This document shows, in pieces, positions 3,880 through 11,417 of a stretch of DNA of 21,391 nt. The stretch lies in the IMG/VR virus record IMGVR_UViG_2778261068_000006, positions 1-21,391 of that record. The stretch is one strand, 5' to 3'. A program made the translations under genes and the position numbers. This DNA comes from a virus. Its lineage: Duplodnaviria; Heunggongvirae; Uroviricota; Caudoviricetes. Positions within the stretch are counted from its first letter, which is position 1. Each line of letters starts with the position of its first letter. The notes beneath the pieces were generated by a model. It made no database searches. It saw only the letters and a program-made list of their open reading frames with translations, and had not been told where the DNA came from.

Positions 3880-4071
3880 TTAAAGGCCTGCCGGGATTTC
3901 GTTATTGTTCATGCGAATAATTTTGTCGACAGGATAACAGTTCCCGGGAATTTTTTGCTCTGCCGCGGCAGTCATGCATTCTTCCATTGAGTCATGTATG
4001 TCAATAACAAGATCAATCGGTTCACCAGAAACAAAAAAAACAGTCAGAACGAGTACAAATGCCGTATTCAT
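3880..4071 (-). CDS. ydfD: YdfD-like small membrane lysis protein (Qin prophage family)
   Basis: 63-aa product MNTAFVLVLTVFFVSGEPIDL...GNCYPVDKIIRMNNNEIPAGL matches remembered E. coli YdfD; ATGA start/stop overlap with dicB at 4068-4071. Confidence 0.7.
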   Translation of the reverse strand: MNTAFVLVLTVFFVSGEPIDLVIDIHDSMEECMTAAAEQKIPGNCYPVDKIIRMNNNEIPAGL

Positions 4072-4256
4072 TGCCTGCATCCTGTTTGCATCAGACGTAA
4101 ACGGGCCAGCATCGAAACAATGCATATTTTATTTAGCAGTTCCTGTTCGTGTTTTCTTTTATTAATGGCATCTTCAGTAAATATCTGATTGCTGATAGTG
4201 ACACCAATTTCAAAACAACCTTCAGACGTATTAACGTTTGGTAATAACGTTTCCAT
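4068..4256 (-). CDS. dicB: DicB cell-division inhibitor (MinC-activating)
   Basis: 62-aa product METLLPNVNTSEGCFEIGVTISNQIFTEDAINKRKHEQELLNKICIVSMLARLRLMQTGCRQ closely matches E. coli K-12 DicB; SD gagga upstream; the longer 97-aa ORF in the track is an in-frame upstream extension. Confidence 0.8.
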   Translation of the reverse strand: METLLPNVNTSEGCFEIGVTISNQIFTEDAINKRKHEQELLNKICIVSMLARLRLMQTGCRQ

Positions 4257-4423
4257 TATCGCGTCCTCAACAATGAATTTTGTGATGCGGTGCCTGGTGC
4301 CTCCAGGTGACGTTAACCAGTTAACAATTAACGCCGGATACAGAGAATCCACCCATAACACTGTTTTTAGCTTTAACTGTTCCGCGTGCGCTTAGCCGCA
4401 TTCACCGCATCACAAAATTCACT

Positions 4424-4481
4424 TTAAAAAGGGCGGACATCAGTTCATGGGCAAACAGATGCCGCCAAACGTCACCAGAAA
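4424..4481 (-). ncRNA. dicF: DicF small RNA (ftsZ-targeting sRNA of the Qin dicB operon) with 3' intrinsic terminator
   Basis: Minus-strand sequence TTTCTGGTGACGTTTGGCGGCATCTGTTTGCCCATGAACTGATGTCCGCCCTTTTT matches the K-12 DicF sequence as I remember it (UUUCUGGUGACGUUUGGCGGUAUCAGUUUU...GCCGCCCUUUUU) with an identical 5' seed and a GGCGG/CCGCC hairpin plus U-tract; lies upstream of dicB as in Qin. Confidence 0.7.
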
Positions 4482-4785: not shown

Positions 4786-5172
4786 TTAATGATTAATTGA
4801 TATTTTATAGGTGGATTCAACTTTCCCATCGGATGTGTGATGCTTTAAATCACAGGAATTAATACTGCTTGCTGTAAAGTGATTTTCAAGGGGGTCTATT
4901 CGAATCCCTTTCTTTTTCATTAACAGGCCAAATCCCTTATTAATGATGTCCATTAATTCCAGAAAGTATTTTTCATGTAAATCCTGGTTATCAGAGAGCT
5001 GCTTCTCTTTGTATAGCCCGATAAAGGCTCGGCGCACGTTACCGGATATATTATCGATGGTTTCTTTTTCTACGGTACTCAGGTCAAGAGTAGCCAATTG
5101 AGAACGAACTATATTCGCTGCCATTTCCTGGAATGGTATTGGTAAATCTTTAAATTCCATCGTCAACCTCAT
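4786..5172 (-). CDS. Hypothetical protein, YdfB/YdfC-like (dicB operon)
   Basis: 128-aa ORF (possible start at MEFKDL); region FQEMAANIVRSQLATLDLSTVEKETIDNISGNV resembles Qin ydfB/ydfC products; TGATG translational-coupling overlap with upstream ydfA-like ORF. Confidence 0.55.
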   Translation of the reverse strand: MRLTMEFKDLPIPFQEMAANIVRSQLATLDLSTVEKETIDNISGNVRRAFIGLYKEKQLSDNQDLHEKYFLELMDIINKGFGLLMKKKGIRIDPLENHFTASSINSCDLKHHTSDGKVESTYKISINH

Positions 5173-5324
5173 CAGTCAGTGTTTCTGGCTAACCAGCGAC
5201 GCGCGCCAGATTCGGTTTTAAGCGTTTTGCTTTTGGTATACGTCATTGCGGTGAACGTACTGTCCTGGTTTGGGAACACGCCGCACACCAGAGATTCGTT
5301 GTTGCCAAGATCGATAGTATCCAT
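5172..5324 (-). CDS. ydfA: YdfA-like small protein, first gene of leftward early operon
   Basis: 50-aa product MDTIDLGNNESLVCGVFPNQDSTFTAMTYTKSKTLKTESGARRWLARNTD; SD gagg 7 nt upstream of ATG at 5324; the longer 68-aa ORF in the track has no RBS. Confidence 0.55.
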   Translation of the reverse strand: MDTIDLGNNESLVCGVFPNQDSTFTAMTYTKSKTLKTESGARRWLARNTD

Positions 5325-5378
5325 GCTGACCTCATTTCCCCTTAACGCCGGGGTAGCGGAACTGTTTGCTGAGAACAC

Positions 5379-5492
5379 CGTGCGGTGTCTTGATGGAGAT
5401 TAATTTAGAATAACCTAACAAATGTGGCAAGTGTTTTTTGTTAGATTGGTCTAACAAAAAGAGTGAGGGAATCTAAGTATCTGAAAGGAGTG
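5379..5492. promoter_or_regulatory. Left operator/promoter region (OL/PL-like): two TTAG-N6-CTAA palindromes at 5405-5418 and 5441-5454
   Basis: Perfect 4+6+4 inverted repeats TTAGaataacCTAA and TTAGattggtCTAA, 36 bp apart, upstream of the leftward ydfA-dicF-dicB operon and downstream of the repressor gene. Confidence 0.5.
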
Positions 5493-5900
5493 TTATTTTA
5501 TTGATTTGTTTTTACGTGCTTTAAGCATTTCTTCGAAGAGTTTATTGAAATTCTCTACTCTTGCGCGCATTTCAGACAGTAAGGCTTCCTGCTCGGAGGA
5601 GGGAAGAGCATCGAATAATTCGATCAATTCTTTGTGGCTGGGAGTTAACTCGGTTTCCACATGAAGTTCTTGTGCTGGCACTGGTGCCTTGTCTTCGTCA
5701 CCAAACATTAGCCATGTAGGCGAGCACTTCAGCGCATCAGCTAAAGCAAATAACCGCTTCCCGACCGGTTGGGTTTCGTCTCTTTCCCATTGTGAAATTG
5801 TGACGTGAGCTACCCCAGCGAGGCGTGCAGCTTCTCGTTGTGTTAGGCGTAATTCTTTTCGTCGTGCCAGAACTCGCTGGCCTAGGGTTCTTGTATCCAT
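5493..5900 (-). CDS. dicA: Prophage repressor, HTH XRE family (DicA-like, cI functional analogue)
   Basis: 135-aa product; QREAARLAGVAHVTISQWERDETQP HTH; C-terminal ...CSPTWLMFGDEDK...EMRARVENFNKLFEEMLKAR matches remembered DicA (135 aa); divergent from dicC. Confidence 0.85.
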   Translation of the reverse strand: MDTRTLGQRVLARRKELRLTQREAARLAGVAHVTISQWERDETQPVGKRLFALADALKCSPTWLMFGDEDKAPVPAQELHVETELTPSHKELIELFDALPSSEQEALLSEMRARVENFNKLFEEMLKARKNKSIK

Positions 5901-5980
5901 AGTTAGGTAATTCTAATTTTTCTTGACTTAGGTATCCCGTGCACATTACTGTTAGGAATATCTAACAAGAGGGGGTTTTG
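5901..5980. promoter_or_regulatory. Immunity switch region (OR-like): two TTAG-N6-CTAA palindromes at 5903-5916 and 5952-5965 plus divergent promoters
   Basis: TTAGgtaattCTAA abuts the dicA start codon; TTAGgaatatCTAA lies 16 nt upstream of the dicC ATG; TTGACT -35-like hexamer at 5923-5928. Confidence 0.5.
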
Positions 5981-6208
5981 ATGCTTAAAGTTGACGCAAT
6001 TACTTTTTTTGGCAGCAAAACAAAACTTGCCAATGCCGCAGGAGTGAAACTGGCAAGTGTTGCTGCATGGGGGGAACTGGTTCCTGAAGGTCGCGCGATG
6101 CGCCTGCAAGAGGCATCCGGCGGGGAACTTCAGTACGACCCCAAAGTTTATGACGAATATCGTAAGGCAAAGCGGGCGGGGCGGTTGAACAATGAAAATC
6201 ACCCCTGA
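5981..6208 (+). CDS. dicC: Cro-like regulator DicC
   Basis: 75-aa product MLKVDAITFFGSKTKLANAAGVKLASVAAWGELVPEGRAMRLQEASGGELQYDPKVYDEYRKAKRAGRLNNENHP matches remembered DicC; SD gaggggg upstream; the track ORF starts 3 nt earlier at TTG. Confidence 0.8.
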   Translation: MLKVDAITFFGSKTKLANAAGVKLASVAAWGELVPEGRAMRLQEASGGELQYDPKVYDEYRKAKRAGRLNNENHP

Positions 6209-6713
6209 ACAGGTTTGTGAGGCTCTGGATGCCTGGGTATGCCGACCAGGAATGACACAGGAGCAGGCGACGATATTAATCACGGAAGCATTCTGGGCTC
6301 TGAAAGAACGCCCGAACATCGATGTTCAACGCGTCACGTTTGATGATGGCGCGGTTGATCAACGGGCGCTGGGCGTCAACCGGGTGAAGATATTCGAACG
6401 CTGGAAAGCTATCGACACCAGGGATAAGCGGGAAAAATTCACGGCGCTGATTCCGGCAATTATGGAGGCTATCCGGATCAGCGATTTCAGGTTGTATTGT
6501 GAAATTACTGACGGAAAAAGCATTACGTACATGATCGCCGGGTTAAACAAAGAATATGGCGATGTGGTGGAGTCCGGTCTGCTTTTGGCAGATCCTGCTG
6601 TTGTGGAGCGTGAGACTGACGAGCTTATAGAAAAAGCTATTGCTTTCAAGCATGCGTATCGTCAGCAATATCAACAAAAAGCCGGATGGAATTATGAGTC
6701 TTCTTTTTGCTGA
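6192..6713 (+). CDS. ydaT: YdaT-like protein (CII-like regulator/toxin family of Rac/CP-933P immunity regions)
   Basis: 173-aa ORF immediately after the cro-like gene; motif REKFTALIPAIMEAI resembles YdaT REKIQKLIPAILAIL; synteny repressor-cro-ydaT. Confidence 0.55.
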   Translation: MKITPEQVCEALDAWVCRPGMTQEQATILITEAFWALKERPNIDVQRVTFDDGAVDQRALGVNRVKIFERWKAIDTRDKREKFTALIPAIMEAIRISDFRLYCEITDGKSITYMIAGLNKEYGDVVESGLLLADPAVVERETDELIEKAIAFKHAYRQQYQQKAGWNYESSFC

Positions 6714-9387: not shown

Positions 9388-9580
9388 TTTTATGGATCAC
9401 CTTTCTGATTGATTTCATATTGGCGAGGTTACGGGAGTTAAGTAGAATTGCTGCGGGTGCTTGAGGCTATCTGTCTCAGGCATGAATGCCAAAAGGCAGA
9501 TAGAGAAAAGCCCCAGTTAACATTACGCGTCCTGCAAGACGCTTAACATTAATCTGAGGCTCAATCTATGAACGGCAAAT

Positions 9581-10654
9581 CTAGGTTAGCCTCTTACGTG
9601 CCGAAAGGCAAGGAGTTGTATGGGTCCACCACATATTGCAATTTTTGTTCTCTCTTAAAATATATTCCACGGGTGTCATTAGCGCGAGCGCCTTATGGGG
9701 CCTTTTGCTGTTATACAGCACCAGATATTCCGCCAGCTTCTGATTAAATAGCGCCAGATCTTCAAAGAGTAAAATCTCATTAAATTCAATAAACTGCTCT
9801 CTTAACGTCCGGTTAAAACGTTCACAGATAGCGTTCATTTTTGGCGTGTAGGGATAGGTCCAGAGGTGTTTGATAGCGGCTTCCTGCAGCGTTTTGTCGA
9901 AGTTTCCCAGGAACTCTTTTCCGTTATCTGTGATTATCTGGCTGATACCGACCGGGAACAACCGGGCTGCGCGGCTGAAGAAGTGATTGACGATATCACT
10001 GTTGAGTGACGGCACAGCCAGCGCCAGCGCGTAATTGCTGCATTCGTCGATCATGGTGATGACATAGCGACGCAGTTCGCCCATTCTGAGCTCAATGGCG
10101 TCCATCCCAATGAGCTCACCTGTCTTTACCGGGCGATAGTGCTTTGGCCTGCGGGGTTTGGCAGACCGCTTTTTGACAAGCAGTGCCTTCCCCCGCGATC
10201 CCAGACGCACAGGTATCATCCGCATTTTATCATGTGCGGCAGCGATCATTCTGCCGATGGTGGAAACACTCGGACAGGCCAGATAGCGCTGTTCGCACCA
10301 GGGCTTCAGGCGAACAAAAATCTGCTCTTTACCGAGGTTCGGCAGCTCTGTCCTGAGGCGTCGAATCTCTTTCAGCACATCGGGATGCCAGTGTTTTTTT
10401 CGTCGCACCAGAGGTGCCTTACTGTGCGGGATTAGCCCCTCAGGTCCTTCCTTGTTCAGTAACTGACGCCACCAGTAAAGCGTGCGGCAGGACACGCCAA
10501 AGGCTTCAGAAGCCGCAGAAATACCGTGTTTATCCCAGAAGTGCAGAGCCTTCATTCTCATTGTTGCTGTATCAGCCATCACTGAAAGCCTCAACGCATA
10601 ATCGGCCGTTTGGTAGTACTTAGGATAGCCAACCATCAGATGCTGCATTTGCAT
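9581..10654 (-). CDS. DDE transposase (HTH + rve integrase-core), IS481-family-like
   Basis: 357-aa ORF; HTH GISAASEAFGVSCRTLYWWRQ; catalytic triad candidates D (MIDECS), D (ITDNGKEF), E (NAICERFNRT); likely true start at internal Met (MADTATMRMK, about 10579). Confidence 0.8.
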   Translation of the reverse strand: MQMQHLMVGYPKYYQTADYALRLSVMADTATMRMKALHFWDKHGISAASEAFGVSCRTLYWWRQLLNKEGPEGLIPHSKAPLVRRKKHWHPDVLKEIRRLRTELPNLGKEQIFVRLKPWCEQRYLACPSVSTIGRMIAAAHDKMRMIPVRLGSRGKALLVKKRSAKPRRPKHYRPVKTGELIGMDAIELRMGELRRYVITMIDECSNYALALAVPSLNSDIVNHFFSRAARLFPVGISQIITDNGKEFLGNFDKTLQEAAIKHLWTYPYTPKMNAICERFNRTLREQFIEFNEILLFEDLALFNQKLAEYLVLYNSKRPHKALALMTPVEYILRENKNCNMWWTHTTPCLSARKRLT

Positions 10655-10976: not shown

Positions 10977-11156
10977 GTTTATTTTTAGTGGGGTTGATCT
11001 TTTTGATTGCGTCATCACGTTTGCCTGTAAAGGCGTCGCGGATGTATTGAACAGATAATGAGCCAACATAGAATCAAAAATTCTTAAGTAGCGCGCAGGG
11101 AGAAGATGGATGGACCCCAAACAGGGGAGTGCTATTTATCTGGAAGGATTCTGTTG

Positions 11157-11417
11157 ATGAAAATCGAAGAATTACGTGAAATTTTTAGTGAAGATGGCCT
11201 CTATACTGTGCGCGTTGAGAATGGCGCTATTGTCAGCCACTGCCGTATTAAATGTTTACAGTCTCAACAAAGGAAGAGTGGAGCTGCGTTAATTCATTTG
11301 GTGGATGGGCTTGTGACGGATGGTTTTATTTTGCGTGCAAATGAATTTGTCACATCGTTGTCGTCTCTGAAAGAAGCTGGGATTAAGGCTGGTTTTTCTG
11401 CTTTTGAAGATGAGTGA
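11157..11417 (+). CDS. Hypothetical protein (Rem-like position in Qin-type prophages)
   Basis: 86-aa ORF from ATG 11157 with SD ggaagga 9 nt upstream; the track ORF starts earlier at 11106. Confidence 0.5.
   Translation: MKIEELREIFSEDGLYTVRVENGAIVSHCRIKCLQSQQRKSGAALIHLVDGLVTDGFILRANEFVTSLSSLKEAGIKAGFSAFEDE

Follow-up and report, generated by a model that had tools for sequence, protein, structure and literature searches.

Four TTAG-N6-CTAA palindromes flanking a dicA-like repressor gene as probable operators of a Qin-type lambdoid immunity switch

In Escherichia coli K-12, the cryptic prophage Qin (Kim) carries the DicA/DicC/dicBp immunity region, which was reportedly described by Bejar et al. 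in 1986 and 1988. K-12 DicA binds the operator Oc, TTGTTAGTCATAACTAACAA (TTGTTAG-N6-CTAACAA), in vivo, represses dicC and activates dicA, and an A-to-C exchange in the CTAA core of this operator (CTAACAA to CTCACAA) abolishes DicA binding (PMC3441716). Two further K-12 sites, Oa and Om, of which Om had been proposed from sequence alone, showed no DicA binding in single-site tests in vivo (reported as data not shown; PMC3441716). As DicA falls, dicC expression rises 700-fold (PMC3441716, PMC10448788, PMC11430063), and deletion of dicA induces dicBp 22-fold (PMC10448788). Ragunathan et al. (2023, PMC10448788) describe operators in the interval between dicA and dicC and also in that between dicA and dicBp. 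The K-12 repressor lacks an Ala-Gly cleavage site, and its repression of dicBp is relieved by Rem (PMC10448788). For DicC, a ChIP-seq preprint inferred one site to each side of dicA and the palindromic motif TT(A/C/T)G...C(G/A/T)AA (PMC11430063), and the main text of a ChIP-seq compendium paper mentions neither DicA nor DicC (PMC12059191). The authors of Reg-Seq rated a DicA site at dicB as low-evidence, its location being unknown.

The window analysed here, a stretch of 21,391 nucleotides from a Caudoviricetes virus record (IMGVR_UViG_2778261068_000006), has the same gene order as K-12 Qin, with ydfA-DicF-dicB and then dicA reading leftward and dicC diverging rightward. Its dicA-like gene (5493-5900, minus strand) encodes a repressor of 135 amino acids, in which an N-terminal HTH_3 domain resembling that of P22 c2 is joined to a short C-terminal domain. 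The protein scores 224 bits against the NCBIfam model NF007257 'transcriptional repressor DicA' (cutoff 101) over residues 1-134 of 135 and is 57% identical to K-12 DicA. Its Pfam matches are to HTH families only, with no match to Peptidase_S24. Residues 1-68 match structures of the P22 c2 N-terminal domain in a phmmer search (E-values of 1.2e-18 for 1adr and 3.5e-18 for 2r1j), as well as the c2 structure 3jxb (E about 1e-18). The recognition helices read AHVTISQWER in the window, SHVSVSQWER in K-12 DicA and SNVAISQWER in P22 c2. On the opposite strand, 81 bp from the dicA start codon, begins a dicC-like gene of the Cro family (5981-6208, plus strand; Pfam P22_Cro, 50.4 bits, cutoff 30.2), whose product is 83% identical to K-12 DicC. 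First after dicC in the rightward operon comes a YdaT-family, CII-like gene (6192-6713, plus strand; Pfam YdaT_toxin, 26.8 bits, cutoff 21), and a look-alike of the YdaT box is found at 6185-6202, spanning the ydaT start codon.

The leftward operon opens with ydfA (5172-5324, minus strand; Pfam DUF1391, 92 bits), whose start codon was picked by comparison with the RefSeq annotation of a 98%-identical locus, L002. It continues with a DicF-like small RNA (4431-4480, minus strand), which matches Rfam RF00039 with an E-value of 1.2e-7 and 43.5 bits, slightly under the gathering score of 48, and is thus not detected at the Rfam gathering threshold. The cell-division inhibitor gene dicB follows (4068-4256, minus strand; Pfam DicB, 130.2 bits, residues 36-97 of a 97-aa ORF). 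A Rem-like ORF (11154-11417, plus strand), a candidate antirepressor of DicA, is 70% identical over 87 amino acids to Rem of L002 in a tblastn comparison. With these NCBIfam, Pfam and Rfam matches, the dicA-like repressor, dicC, ydfA, dicF and dicB named in the initial annotation all stand. Matches to the locus region number up to eight per E. coli genome, and E. coli O157:H7 has four DicF copies.

The pattern TTAGNNNNNNCTAA (TTAGN6CTAA) has exactly four matches in the 21.4-kb window, at 5405-5418 (site 1), 5441-5454 (site 2), 5903-5916 (site 3) and 5952-5965 (site 4), so that an exact pattern search recovered each of the four perfect palindromes that the initial annotation had pointed out. 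The placement given for them was likewise correct: sites 3 and 4 are in the divergent intergenic region between dicA and dicC, and sites 1 and 2 lie past the dicA stop codon, upstream of ydfA-DicF-dicB. A mean of 0.24 matches per window is expected by chance, and none of 100 dinucleotide-preserving shuffles reached four. All four palindromes fall within 561 bp, a span for which 0.0063 matches are expected (Poisson P(>=4) ~6.5e-11). Had the motif been equally frequent elsewhere, its link to the repressor would have been in question; four 50-kb segments of the K-12 chromosome outside prophages, 200 kb in total, contained no match. Specificity was measured by this count instead of by a scan of a 596-Gb genome collection for TTGTTAGN6CTAACAA, which returned unrelated taxa among the matches listed and was uninformative on this point, because 14 specified bases give about 2,000 chance matches in such a collection. 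The degenerate DicC-type motif TTHGN6CDAA, for which about four chance matches are expected in the window, yielded no sites there, for example upstream of DicF, besides the same four. No other repeated motif was found in either regulatory region.

The four sites are not equivalent. Measured against the extended 18-bp form TGTTAG-N6-CTAACA, sites 2 and 4 show no mismatch, site 1 shows two and site 3 three, and the centre-to-centre spacing is 36 bp in the left pair (sites 1 and 2) and 49 bp in the right pair (sites 3 and 4). Both left sites straddle a dicBp-like sigma-70 promoter (5402-5430, minus strand), with a -35 element TTGCCA (5430-5425), a 17-bp spacer and a -10 element TAAATT (5407-5402), which reads leftward into ydfA, DicF and dicB and is the sole promoter-like site reported by a consensus scan of 5300-6050. 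K-12 dicBp has the same arrangement by sequence inspection (TTGACC, 17 bp, TAATCT). Site 1 (5403-5420, core 5405-5418; ATTTAGaataacCTAACA) is a core-only candidate operator with an exact core match, located between the -35 and -10 elements and overlapping the latter. Its arms do not vary in 40 distinct alleles, its position is conserved in K-12, PPompW and Klebsiella phage ST405, and its reverse complement is 89% identical to site 3 over 18 nt. Site 2 (5435-5460, core 5441-5454) is predicted to be a strong operator. It forms a perfect palindrome of 11+11 bases, TTTTTGTTAGA-ttgg-TCTAACAAAAA, and lies directly upstream of the dicBp-like -35. Its 7+7 arms are those of K-12 Oc (TTGTTAG/CTAACAA) and are constant among alleles, which differ at four or five of the six spacer positions. 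The conserved dicBp leader folded as RNA gave a z-score of 0.06, without thermodynamic signal.

On the right side, sequence inspection and alignment to the K-12 promoter with its mapped transcription start site point to a PdicC-like promoter (5923-5952, plus strand). Its -35 element is TTGACT (5923-5928), and its weak -10 element would be either ATTACT after a 16-bp spacer or TACTGT after an 18-bp spacer, ending in or beside site 4. This promoter is absent from the consensus-scan output for 5300-6050; the -10 of the window allele is poor, and most related alleles have AATAAT at that position. Site 4 (5950-5967, core 5952-5965; TGTTAGgaatatCTAACA) is a strong predicted operator. It aligns as cTGTTAGgaatatCTAACAa column for column with K-12 Oc, of which it is the positional counterpart, and shares six of seven and seven of seven arm bases with it. 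Located 14 bp upstream of the dicC ATG, it appears from the alignment to the mapped K-12 promoter to overlap the -10/+1 region of PdicC. Among 22 alleles its arms are invariant and three spacer columns are variable. Site 3 (5901-5918, core 5903-5916; AGTTAGgtaattCTAATT), a core-only candidate that corresponds in position to K-12 Oa, starts two bases past the dicA start codon. It is wholly invariant, arms and spacer alike, in 22 distinct alleles, and across K-12, PPompW and the Klebsiella phage the arms are kept and the spacer changes. A -10-like element, TAGAAT (5915-5910), is present on its minus strand. A degenerate middle site may exist at 5929-5942 (TTAGgtatccCGTG), 26 bp from site 3 and 23 bp from site 4, and the weak evidence for it comprises five of eight core bases in the window and seven of eight at the same position in PPompW (TTAGgtttctCTAC). 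Searches of the window with the 18-bp form and the degenerate motif found no such middle-site candidate in the left cluster.

In all of these respects the locus resembles K-12 Qin closely. Both have operators with TTGTTAG-N6-CTAACAA arms, a strong site over the dicC -10, a core-only site abutting the dicA ATG, sites on the dicBp promoter, a 135-aa repressor without a cleavage domain and a Rem-like gene. The repressors, however, are only 57% identical, and the operator spacers differ. At dicBp the window has two perfect cores, whereas K-12, which reads TTAGccatgaCTAA at the operator position, has one perfect and one degenerate core (TATGctatagCTAA). A 128-aa ORF in the window replaces ydfB and ydfC of K-12, and an intact YdaT gene followed by replication genes contrasts with the truncated ydfX of K-12. 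Membership of the window in the Qin-type DicA/DicC immunity regions is indicated by a DicA-family repressor with a divergent DicC and with ydfA-dicF-dicB downstream on the same strand, by an Oc-type repeat over the dicC -10 together with sites on dicBp between dicA and ydfA, and by a short repressor without an S24 domain accompanied by a Rem-like ORF.

More distant relatives share the design in part. The DicA N-terminal domain is homologous to c2 of P22 immC, and the Cro protein belongs to the P22_Cro family. In both systems the operators span 18 bp and are two-fold symmetric, the outer arms being contacted and the centre variable. The operator consensus of P22 is ATTTAAG-N4-CTTAAAT, and the half-site TGTTAGA of the window thus differs from ATTTAAG at the same positions; the recognition helices differ at two positions (H for N, T for A). 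Unlike c2, the DicA-like protein has no C-terminal domain for oligomerisation and RecA-stimulated self-cleavage and would therefore not be directly inducible by RecA. The number of sites also differs. In lambda, each cluster holds three sites about 23-24 bp apart, and about 23-24 bp is the operator spacing of P22 as well. Three adjacent sites per cluster are typical of both phages, whereas we count two canonical sites in each region of the window. Neither 36 nor 49 bp corresponds to an integral number of helical turns, and both spacings differ from those of lambda and P22, so that pairwise cooperativity is not evident. As to lambda itself, proteins and operators are unrelated in sequence, and the clusters are about 0.5 kb apart in the window compared with 2.4 kb in lambda. 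The logic is the same nevertheless: the repressor gene is located between operator clusters, one repressor silences both early promoters, a divergent cro-like gene gives a bistable switch, and, according to K-12 data, the repressor activates its own promoter (PMC3441716, PMC10448788). The OL/OR-like layout proposed in the initial annotation thus holds for the repressor gene between a left and a right cluster, divergent from a cro-like gene, but not for the number of sites per region, two instead of three. The RacR/YdaS/YdaT module of the Rac prophage also has a divergent repressor/Cro-like pair followed by a CII-like YdaT gene, but the repressor and its operators are not those of the DicA system, and racR is not followed by a dicBF operon (PMC11879457).

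Sequence variation among related loci supports a function of the palindrome arms. A first search of viral contigs with the window protein returned near-identical loci only and was used for a comparison of arms with spacers, not for covariation. Each of the 80 IMG/VR loci whose DicA shares at least 95% identity with that of the window had exactly four sites. Across these loci none of the 32 arm columns was variable, compared with 10 of 24 spacer columns and 69 of 170 columns in the remaining intergenic DNA (Fisher 5.5e-5 for arms against spacers and 6.6e-7 for arms against remaining intergenic DNA, with related sequences counted as independent). This comparison is mute on site 3, because its arms and its spacer are both invariant in the close set. 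A more diverse set of 57 DicA-family loci was obtained by searching again with an alignment of the family headed by a divergent protein. Here, two to four palindromes flanked the repressor gene in all 12 loci with an SQWE recognition helix, whereas none of the 45 loci with other helices had the palindrome (Fisher 1.4e-12, not corrected for phylogeny). The divergent allele L263 retains the 49-bp and 36-bp spacings, and in mEp460, whose helix is SSISLWES, the corresponding position is occupied by ATTGAG-aaaa-CTCAAT. The helix …HV[TS][IV]SQWE…, the TTAG-N6-CTAA arms and the 49/36-bp spacings recur together in at least five DicA alleles with protein identities as low as about 50-57%: those of the window and K-12 types, of PPompW and Klebsiella phage ST405, and of two additional IMG/VR types.

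We consider it very likely that the four palindromes serve as operators in the immunity switch of a Qin-type lambdoid prophage. By homology, the DicA-like repressor, with its c2-like N-terminal domain, would as a dimer contact the TTAG and CTAA arms across an uncontacted 6-bp spacer; binding of DicA to the candidate sites in the window allele is thereby expected by transfer from K-12. Occupancy of the strong site 4 over the -10/+1 region would close the rightward dicC-ydaT-replication promoter and, as in K-12, probably activate dicA, and the weak site 3, which overlaps the -10-like TAGAAT, may, more speculatively, provide OR3-like negative autoregulation of dicA. Further to the left, the weak site 1 between the -35 and -10 elements and the strong site 2 upstream of the -35 would silence the division inhibitors as part of a ydfA-DicF-dicB-exonuclease operon. 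Literature on the K-12 homologue supports the idea that a single repressor governs the early promoters in both directions, in the manner of cI at OR and OL (PMC3441716, PMC10448788, PMC11430063). The sites are probably common to DicA and DicC. Cro-like DicC most likely shuts off dicA through these same sites, which would make the switch bistable. As the DicA-like protein lacks a self-cleavage domain, release is expected via an antirepressor encoded by the Rem-like gene or via DicA instability rather than via RecA-mediated cleavage.

The contribution of sites 1 and 3 is less certain, because the core-only K-12 sites Oa and Om did not bind DicA alone in vivo (PMC3441716). Sites 1 and 3 may be very weak, cooperativity-dependent or no operators at all, and their conservation could stem in part from the overlapping -10 elements and the dicA 5′ end. 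Carried further, this argument would leave only sites 2 and 4, with the full 18-bp form, as functional operators and make sites 1 and 3 look-alikes conserved for the -10 overlap and the dicA 5′ end, a reading that we regard as unlikely. Their mismatches to the 18-bp form (two in site 1, three in site 3), their overlap with -10-like hexamers (dicBp TAAATT and PdicA-like TAGAAT) and the equal invariance of arms and spacer of site 3 in the close set are in line with it. However, the right arm of site 1 (CTAA, 5415-5418) is invariant within the promoter spacer, where promoter consensus offers no explanation, and the arms of both sites are kept while the spacers are altered across K-12, PPompW and the Klebsiella phage. 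Occlusion of dicBp also requires a repressor at the position that site 1 occupies, whereas site 2 lies on the far side of the -35, upstream of it. Moreover, weak cooperative sites such as OR3 and OL3 of lambda often fail single-site assays, which counts against discarding sites 1 and 3.

It appears highly improbable that the palindromes are targets of DicC only and that the DicA-like repressor of the window allele recognises another sequence. The K-12 DicC motif TT(A/C/T)G...C(G/A/T)AA from ChIP-seq, with sites on both sides of dicA (PMC11430063), and the higher identity of the window protein to K-12 for DicC (83%) than for DicA (57%) would fit such an assignment, but K-12 DicA binds Oc directly and sequence-specifically (PMC3441716). 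In addition, the palindrome tracks the repressor recognition helix across the 57 loci, and neither regulatory region contains an alternative repeated motif. Repressor and Cro of lambdoid switches use common operators, which further argues against an exclusive role of DicC. Hardly any weight can be given to chance palindromes in AT-rich promoter DNA or to the CII-like YdaT as ligand of the sites: four matches where 0.24 are expected, a number reached in none of 100 shuffles, the lack of matches in 200 kb of K-12 chromosome, and the invariant arms stand against this reading, even though the regions are AT-rich and YdaT-family proteins also bind 6-N6-6 inverted repeats (PMC11879457). YdaT was rejected as the binding protein, since the YdaT box is a different sequence, TTGATT-N6-AATCAA (PMC11879457).

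The identification of the palindromes as operators of a Qin-type immunity switch is correct but ordinary, because the arrangement has been described and partly tested in E. coli K-12: operator sequence, position over the dicC promoter, leftward control of dicBF and the analogy to OL and OR of lambda are already published for the Qin prophage. Our analysis adds the placement, by sequence comparison, of the dicBp operators, whose location the Reg-Seq authors list as unknown, and the observation, made in many prophage alleles, that the arms are conserved and covary with the recognition helix. It further raises the possibility that dicA mRNA is leaderless and subject to OR3-like negative autoregulation, because the TAGAAT element at site 3 is only 9 nt from the dicA ATG and no Shine-Dalgarno sequence is present. 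Such autoregulation would account for the finding that surplus DicA halved PdicA output in K-12 (Yun et al. 2012, PMC3441716).

Finally, Qin-like prophages that reside together in a cell, with their control over the toxic division inhibitors DicB and DicF, may have one operator code. If operators are common to the alleles in this manner, such prophages may not be heteroimmune and may cross-regulate each other. Taken jointly with leaderless dicA mRNA and OR3-like autoregulation, this is a tentative proposal, possible but on balance doubtful. If true, DicA and DicC of each prophage could cross-regulate the division-inhibitor operons of the others, and the individuality of a prophage would be carried by the C-terminal domain of DicA and its antirepressor.

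The pattern TTAGNNNNNNCTAA had four exact matches in the 21,391-base window, at 5405-5418 (site 1), 5441-5454 (site 2), 5903-5916 (site 3) and 5952-5965 (site 4), so that all four perfect palindromes of the initial annotation were re-found. Dinucleotide-preserving shuffles contained 0.24 matches on average, none of 100 reached four, and the 561 bp span holding all sites would be expected to hold 0.0063 (Poisson P about 6.5e-11). The degenerate form TTHGN6CDAA, with about four matches expected by chance, had none in the window beyond these. Specificity had been proposed to fail if the motif were similarly frequent elsewhere; it was absent from 200 kb of the K-12 chromosome outside prophages (four 50-kb stretches counted).

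ORF and family searches placed a dicA-like gene at 5493-5900 on the minus strand. The encoded HTH_3 protein has 135 aa and 57% identity to K-12 DicA; against the NCBIfam model 'transcriptional repressor DicA' it scores 224 bits (cutoff 101). The divergent gene is dicC-like and of the P22_Cro family (5981-6208, plus strand; 83% identical to K-12 DicC), with a YdaT-family gene and replication genes after it. On the dicA strand, the downstream features are ydfA (DUF1391), a 128-aa ORF, a DicF-like RNA (4431-4480, minus strand), dicB (family match of 130 bits), a DUF1482 gene and the gene for an 826-aa exonuclease. With 43.5 bits the DicF-like RNA falls just under the Rfam gathering score of 48 and is therefore missed by a default gathering-threshold search; an STnc100-like match (4224-4433, minus strand; 39 bits, gathering score 47) adjoins it. 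Sites 3 and 4 lie inside the 80-bp dicA/dicC intergenic region and sites 1 and 2 beyond the dicA stop codon, in agreement with the layout originally described, i.e. two sites between dicA and dicC and two downstream of dicA. Across the ydaT start codon, an inverted repeat TTGAAC-aatgaa-AATCAC (6185-6202, ATG at 6192) resembles the footprinted YdaT boxes of Rac (ATGATT-catgaa-AATCAA) and CP-933P (TTGATT-N6-AATCAA), which likewise carry the ATG in the spacer (PMC11879457). A sok antitoxin RNA (9455-9622, plus strand; 105.8 bits), at which a hok/sok module is to be expected, is overlapped by the end of an IS481-family transposase ORF (9581-10654, minus strand; 221.5 bits, slightly short of the cutoff of 224), suggesting that an IS has inserted beside or within this module.

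As operators and control of the K-12 system have been published, the motif and its OL/OR-like reading are already known and constitute the rediscovery, in another allele, of a documented system. K-12 DicA binds Oc, a 20-nt inverted repeat TTGTTAGTCATAACTAACAA overlapping the -10 region of the mapped dicC promoter. Binding was lost when one A was changed to C (CTAACAA to CTCACAA), and Oc-bound DicA represses dicC and is needed for dicA transcription (Yun et al. 2012, PMC3441716). No DicA binding was seen at Om or Oa, two sequence-predicted sites, when each was assayed by itself (PMC3441716). The dicA-dicC and dicA-dicBp intervals contain operator sequences analogous to those at lambda PR and PL, deletion of dicA induced the leftward promoter dicBp 22-fold, the DicA-DicC pair works as a bistable switch, and the Qin protein Rem is an antirepressor that relieves DicA repression of K-12 dicBp (Ragunathan et al. 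2023, PMC10448788). From DicC ChIP-seq, binding sites were inferred to either side of dicA, and the MEME motif is palindromic, its two halves being TT(A/C/T)G and C(G/A/T)AA (PMC11430063). In the K-12 sequence, TTAGctaatgCTAA abuts the dicA ATG with Oc 50 bp further on, and downstream of dicA a TTGACC-17-TAATCT promoter has TTAGccatgaCTAA in its spacer.

An IMG/VR search with the window repressor yielded 80 loci whose DicA is at least 95% identical, and each carries exactly four TTAGN6CTAA sites. After removal of duplicates (40 left-region and 22 right-region alleles), variable columns amounted to 0 of 32 in the TTAG/CTAA arms, 10 of 24 in the N6 spacers and 69 of 170 in other intergenic positions (Fisher 5.5e-5 and 6.6e-7 for arms against spacers and other positions, columns treated as independent). 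Invariant arms and variable spacers are the pattern expected of a dimeric HTH protein contacting the outer arms rather than the centre. When the window was aligned with K-12, the O157-type prophage PPompW and Klebsiella phage ST405-OXA48phi1.2, all four sites fell at equivalent positions; here, too, the arms were conserved and the spacers differed. Searching again, now with a family alignment headed by a divergent member, yielded 57 diverse loci. Each of the 12 loci with an SQWE recognition helix (three variants) had two to four sites flanking the repressor gene, and the remaining 45, with 18 other helix variants, had no site anywhere in the roughly 1.8-kb locus (Fisher 1.4e-12, uncorrected for phylogeny). 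One divergent SQWE allele (L263) kept the 49-bp and 36-bp spacings. In two loci (L236 and L246) with the helix HVTIFKWE(N/S), TTAA-N6-TTAA palindromes flank the repressor in place of TTAG-N6-CTAA; thus, the SQ-to-FK helix change goes with a G-to-A half-site change. mEp460 (helix SSISLWES) has ATTGAG-aaaa-CTCAAT at the Oc position. The N-terminal 68 residues of the window repressor match the solved P22 c2 DNA-binding domain (E about 1e-18), with recognition helices AHVTISQWER and SNVAISQWER, respectively. On every count that could be tested, the locus belongs to the Qin-type DicA/DicC immunity regions. No complete E. coli genome contains the whole window (best match 71% coverage, 93% identity); the 1.1-kb immunity region by itself matches E. 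coli 2013C-3492 at 98% identity, and 550 of 5,426 genomes contain at least 80% of that region. The window is a typical lambdoid mosaic.

The four sites are not equivalent. The extended form TGTTAG-N6-CTAACA is matched perfectly by sites 2 and 4, with two mismatches by site 1 and with three by site 3; judged by these counts, each regulatory region is predicted to hold one strong and one core-only site. Site 2 is a perfect 11+11 palindrome (5435-5460), and site 3 is 89% identical over 18 nt to the reverse complement of site 1. The spacing is 36 bp on the left and 49 bp on the right, where a degenerate middle candidate TTAGgtatccCGTG (5929-5942) lies 26 bp from site 3 and 23 bp from site 4; PPompW has TTAG-N6-CTAC at this position.

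In a consensus scan of 5300-6050, the only promoter-like site reported was TTGCCA-17-TAAATT (minus strand, 5430-5402). Site 1 fills its spacer and overlaps its -10; site 2 lies further upstream and stops 10 bp short of the -35. Rightward, a -35 TTGACT (5923-5928) precedes a weak -10 abutting or overlapping site 4. This -10 region (5944-5952) reads ATTACTG in the window and AATAATG, a 5/6 match to the consensus, in most of the 80 close alleles; given its -10, the window's rightward promoter may be weaker than usual. Site 3 contains a -10-like TAGAAT (5910-5915, minus strand) 9 nt upstream of the dicA ATG, also found in PPompW and the Klebsiella phage and replaced by TAGCAT in K-12. The dicA start lacks a Shine-Dalgarno sequence, and no recognisable -35 lies near TAGAAT. 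This placement suggests that the dicA transcript is leaderless or nearly so and depends on an activator, like lambda cI from PRM, and site 3 with its embedded TAGAAT may mark it as negatively autoregulated. The leader of the leftward operon (5325-5395, minus strand), about 70 nt running from the dicBp-like promoter to ydfA, shows strong conservation that extends to divergent DicA-family loci and contains inverted repeats ACACCG/CGGTGT (5377-5390) and CCCC/GGGG (about 5341-5356). Its RNA fold was no better than that of shuffled sequence (z 0.06), and Rfam returned no match at E<=1.

The role of sites 1 and 3 as weak cooperative operators is the main uncertainty of the model. The core-only sites might instead be conserved through their overlap with -10 elements and the 5' end of dicA, and the failure of K-12 DicA to bind Oa alone counsels caution. 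We consider this unlikely, as the CTAA of site 1 is invariant although it lies within a promoter spacer, and the arms are kept across distant alleles whose spacers have changed.

In the best-supported reading of the mechanism as a whole, extended to the window allele's proteins from their relatives, DicA dimers would bind tightly to the arms of sites 4 and 2. At site 4 they would block the rightward dicC-ydaT-replication promoter; from there they would also, as in K-12, help RNA polymerase to use the weak dicA promoter. The leftward ydfA-DicF-dicB-exonuclease promoter would be blocked from sites 1 and 2. DicC would shut off dicA through the same sites. Release would come from a Rem-like antirepressor (ORF 11154-11417, plus strand; 70% identity over 87 aa with the Rem protein of a related E. 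coli prophage) or from repressor instability. Release by RecA cleavage would not be expected, because the repressor has no S24 domain.

Of the OL/OR-like claim, the lambda/P22-like working stands, as documented in K-12, whereas a structural copy does not: the window clusters comprise two sites 36 and 49 bp apart, those of lambda and P22 three at about 23-24 bp, and the window repressor, unlike its lambda and P22 counterparts, is short and unable to cleave itself. If the operator code is indeed common to DicA alleles, co-resident Qin-like prophages may cross-regulate one another.
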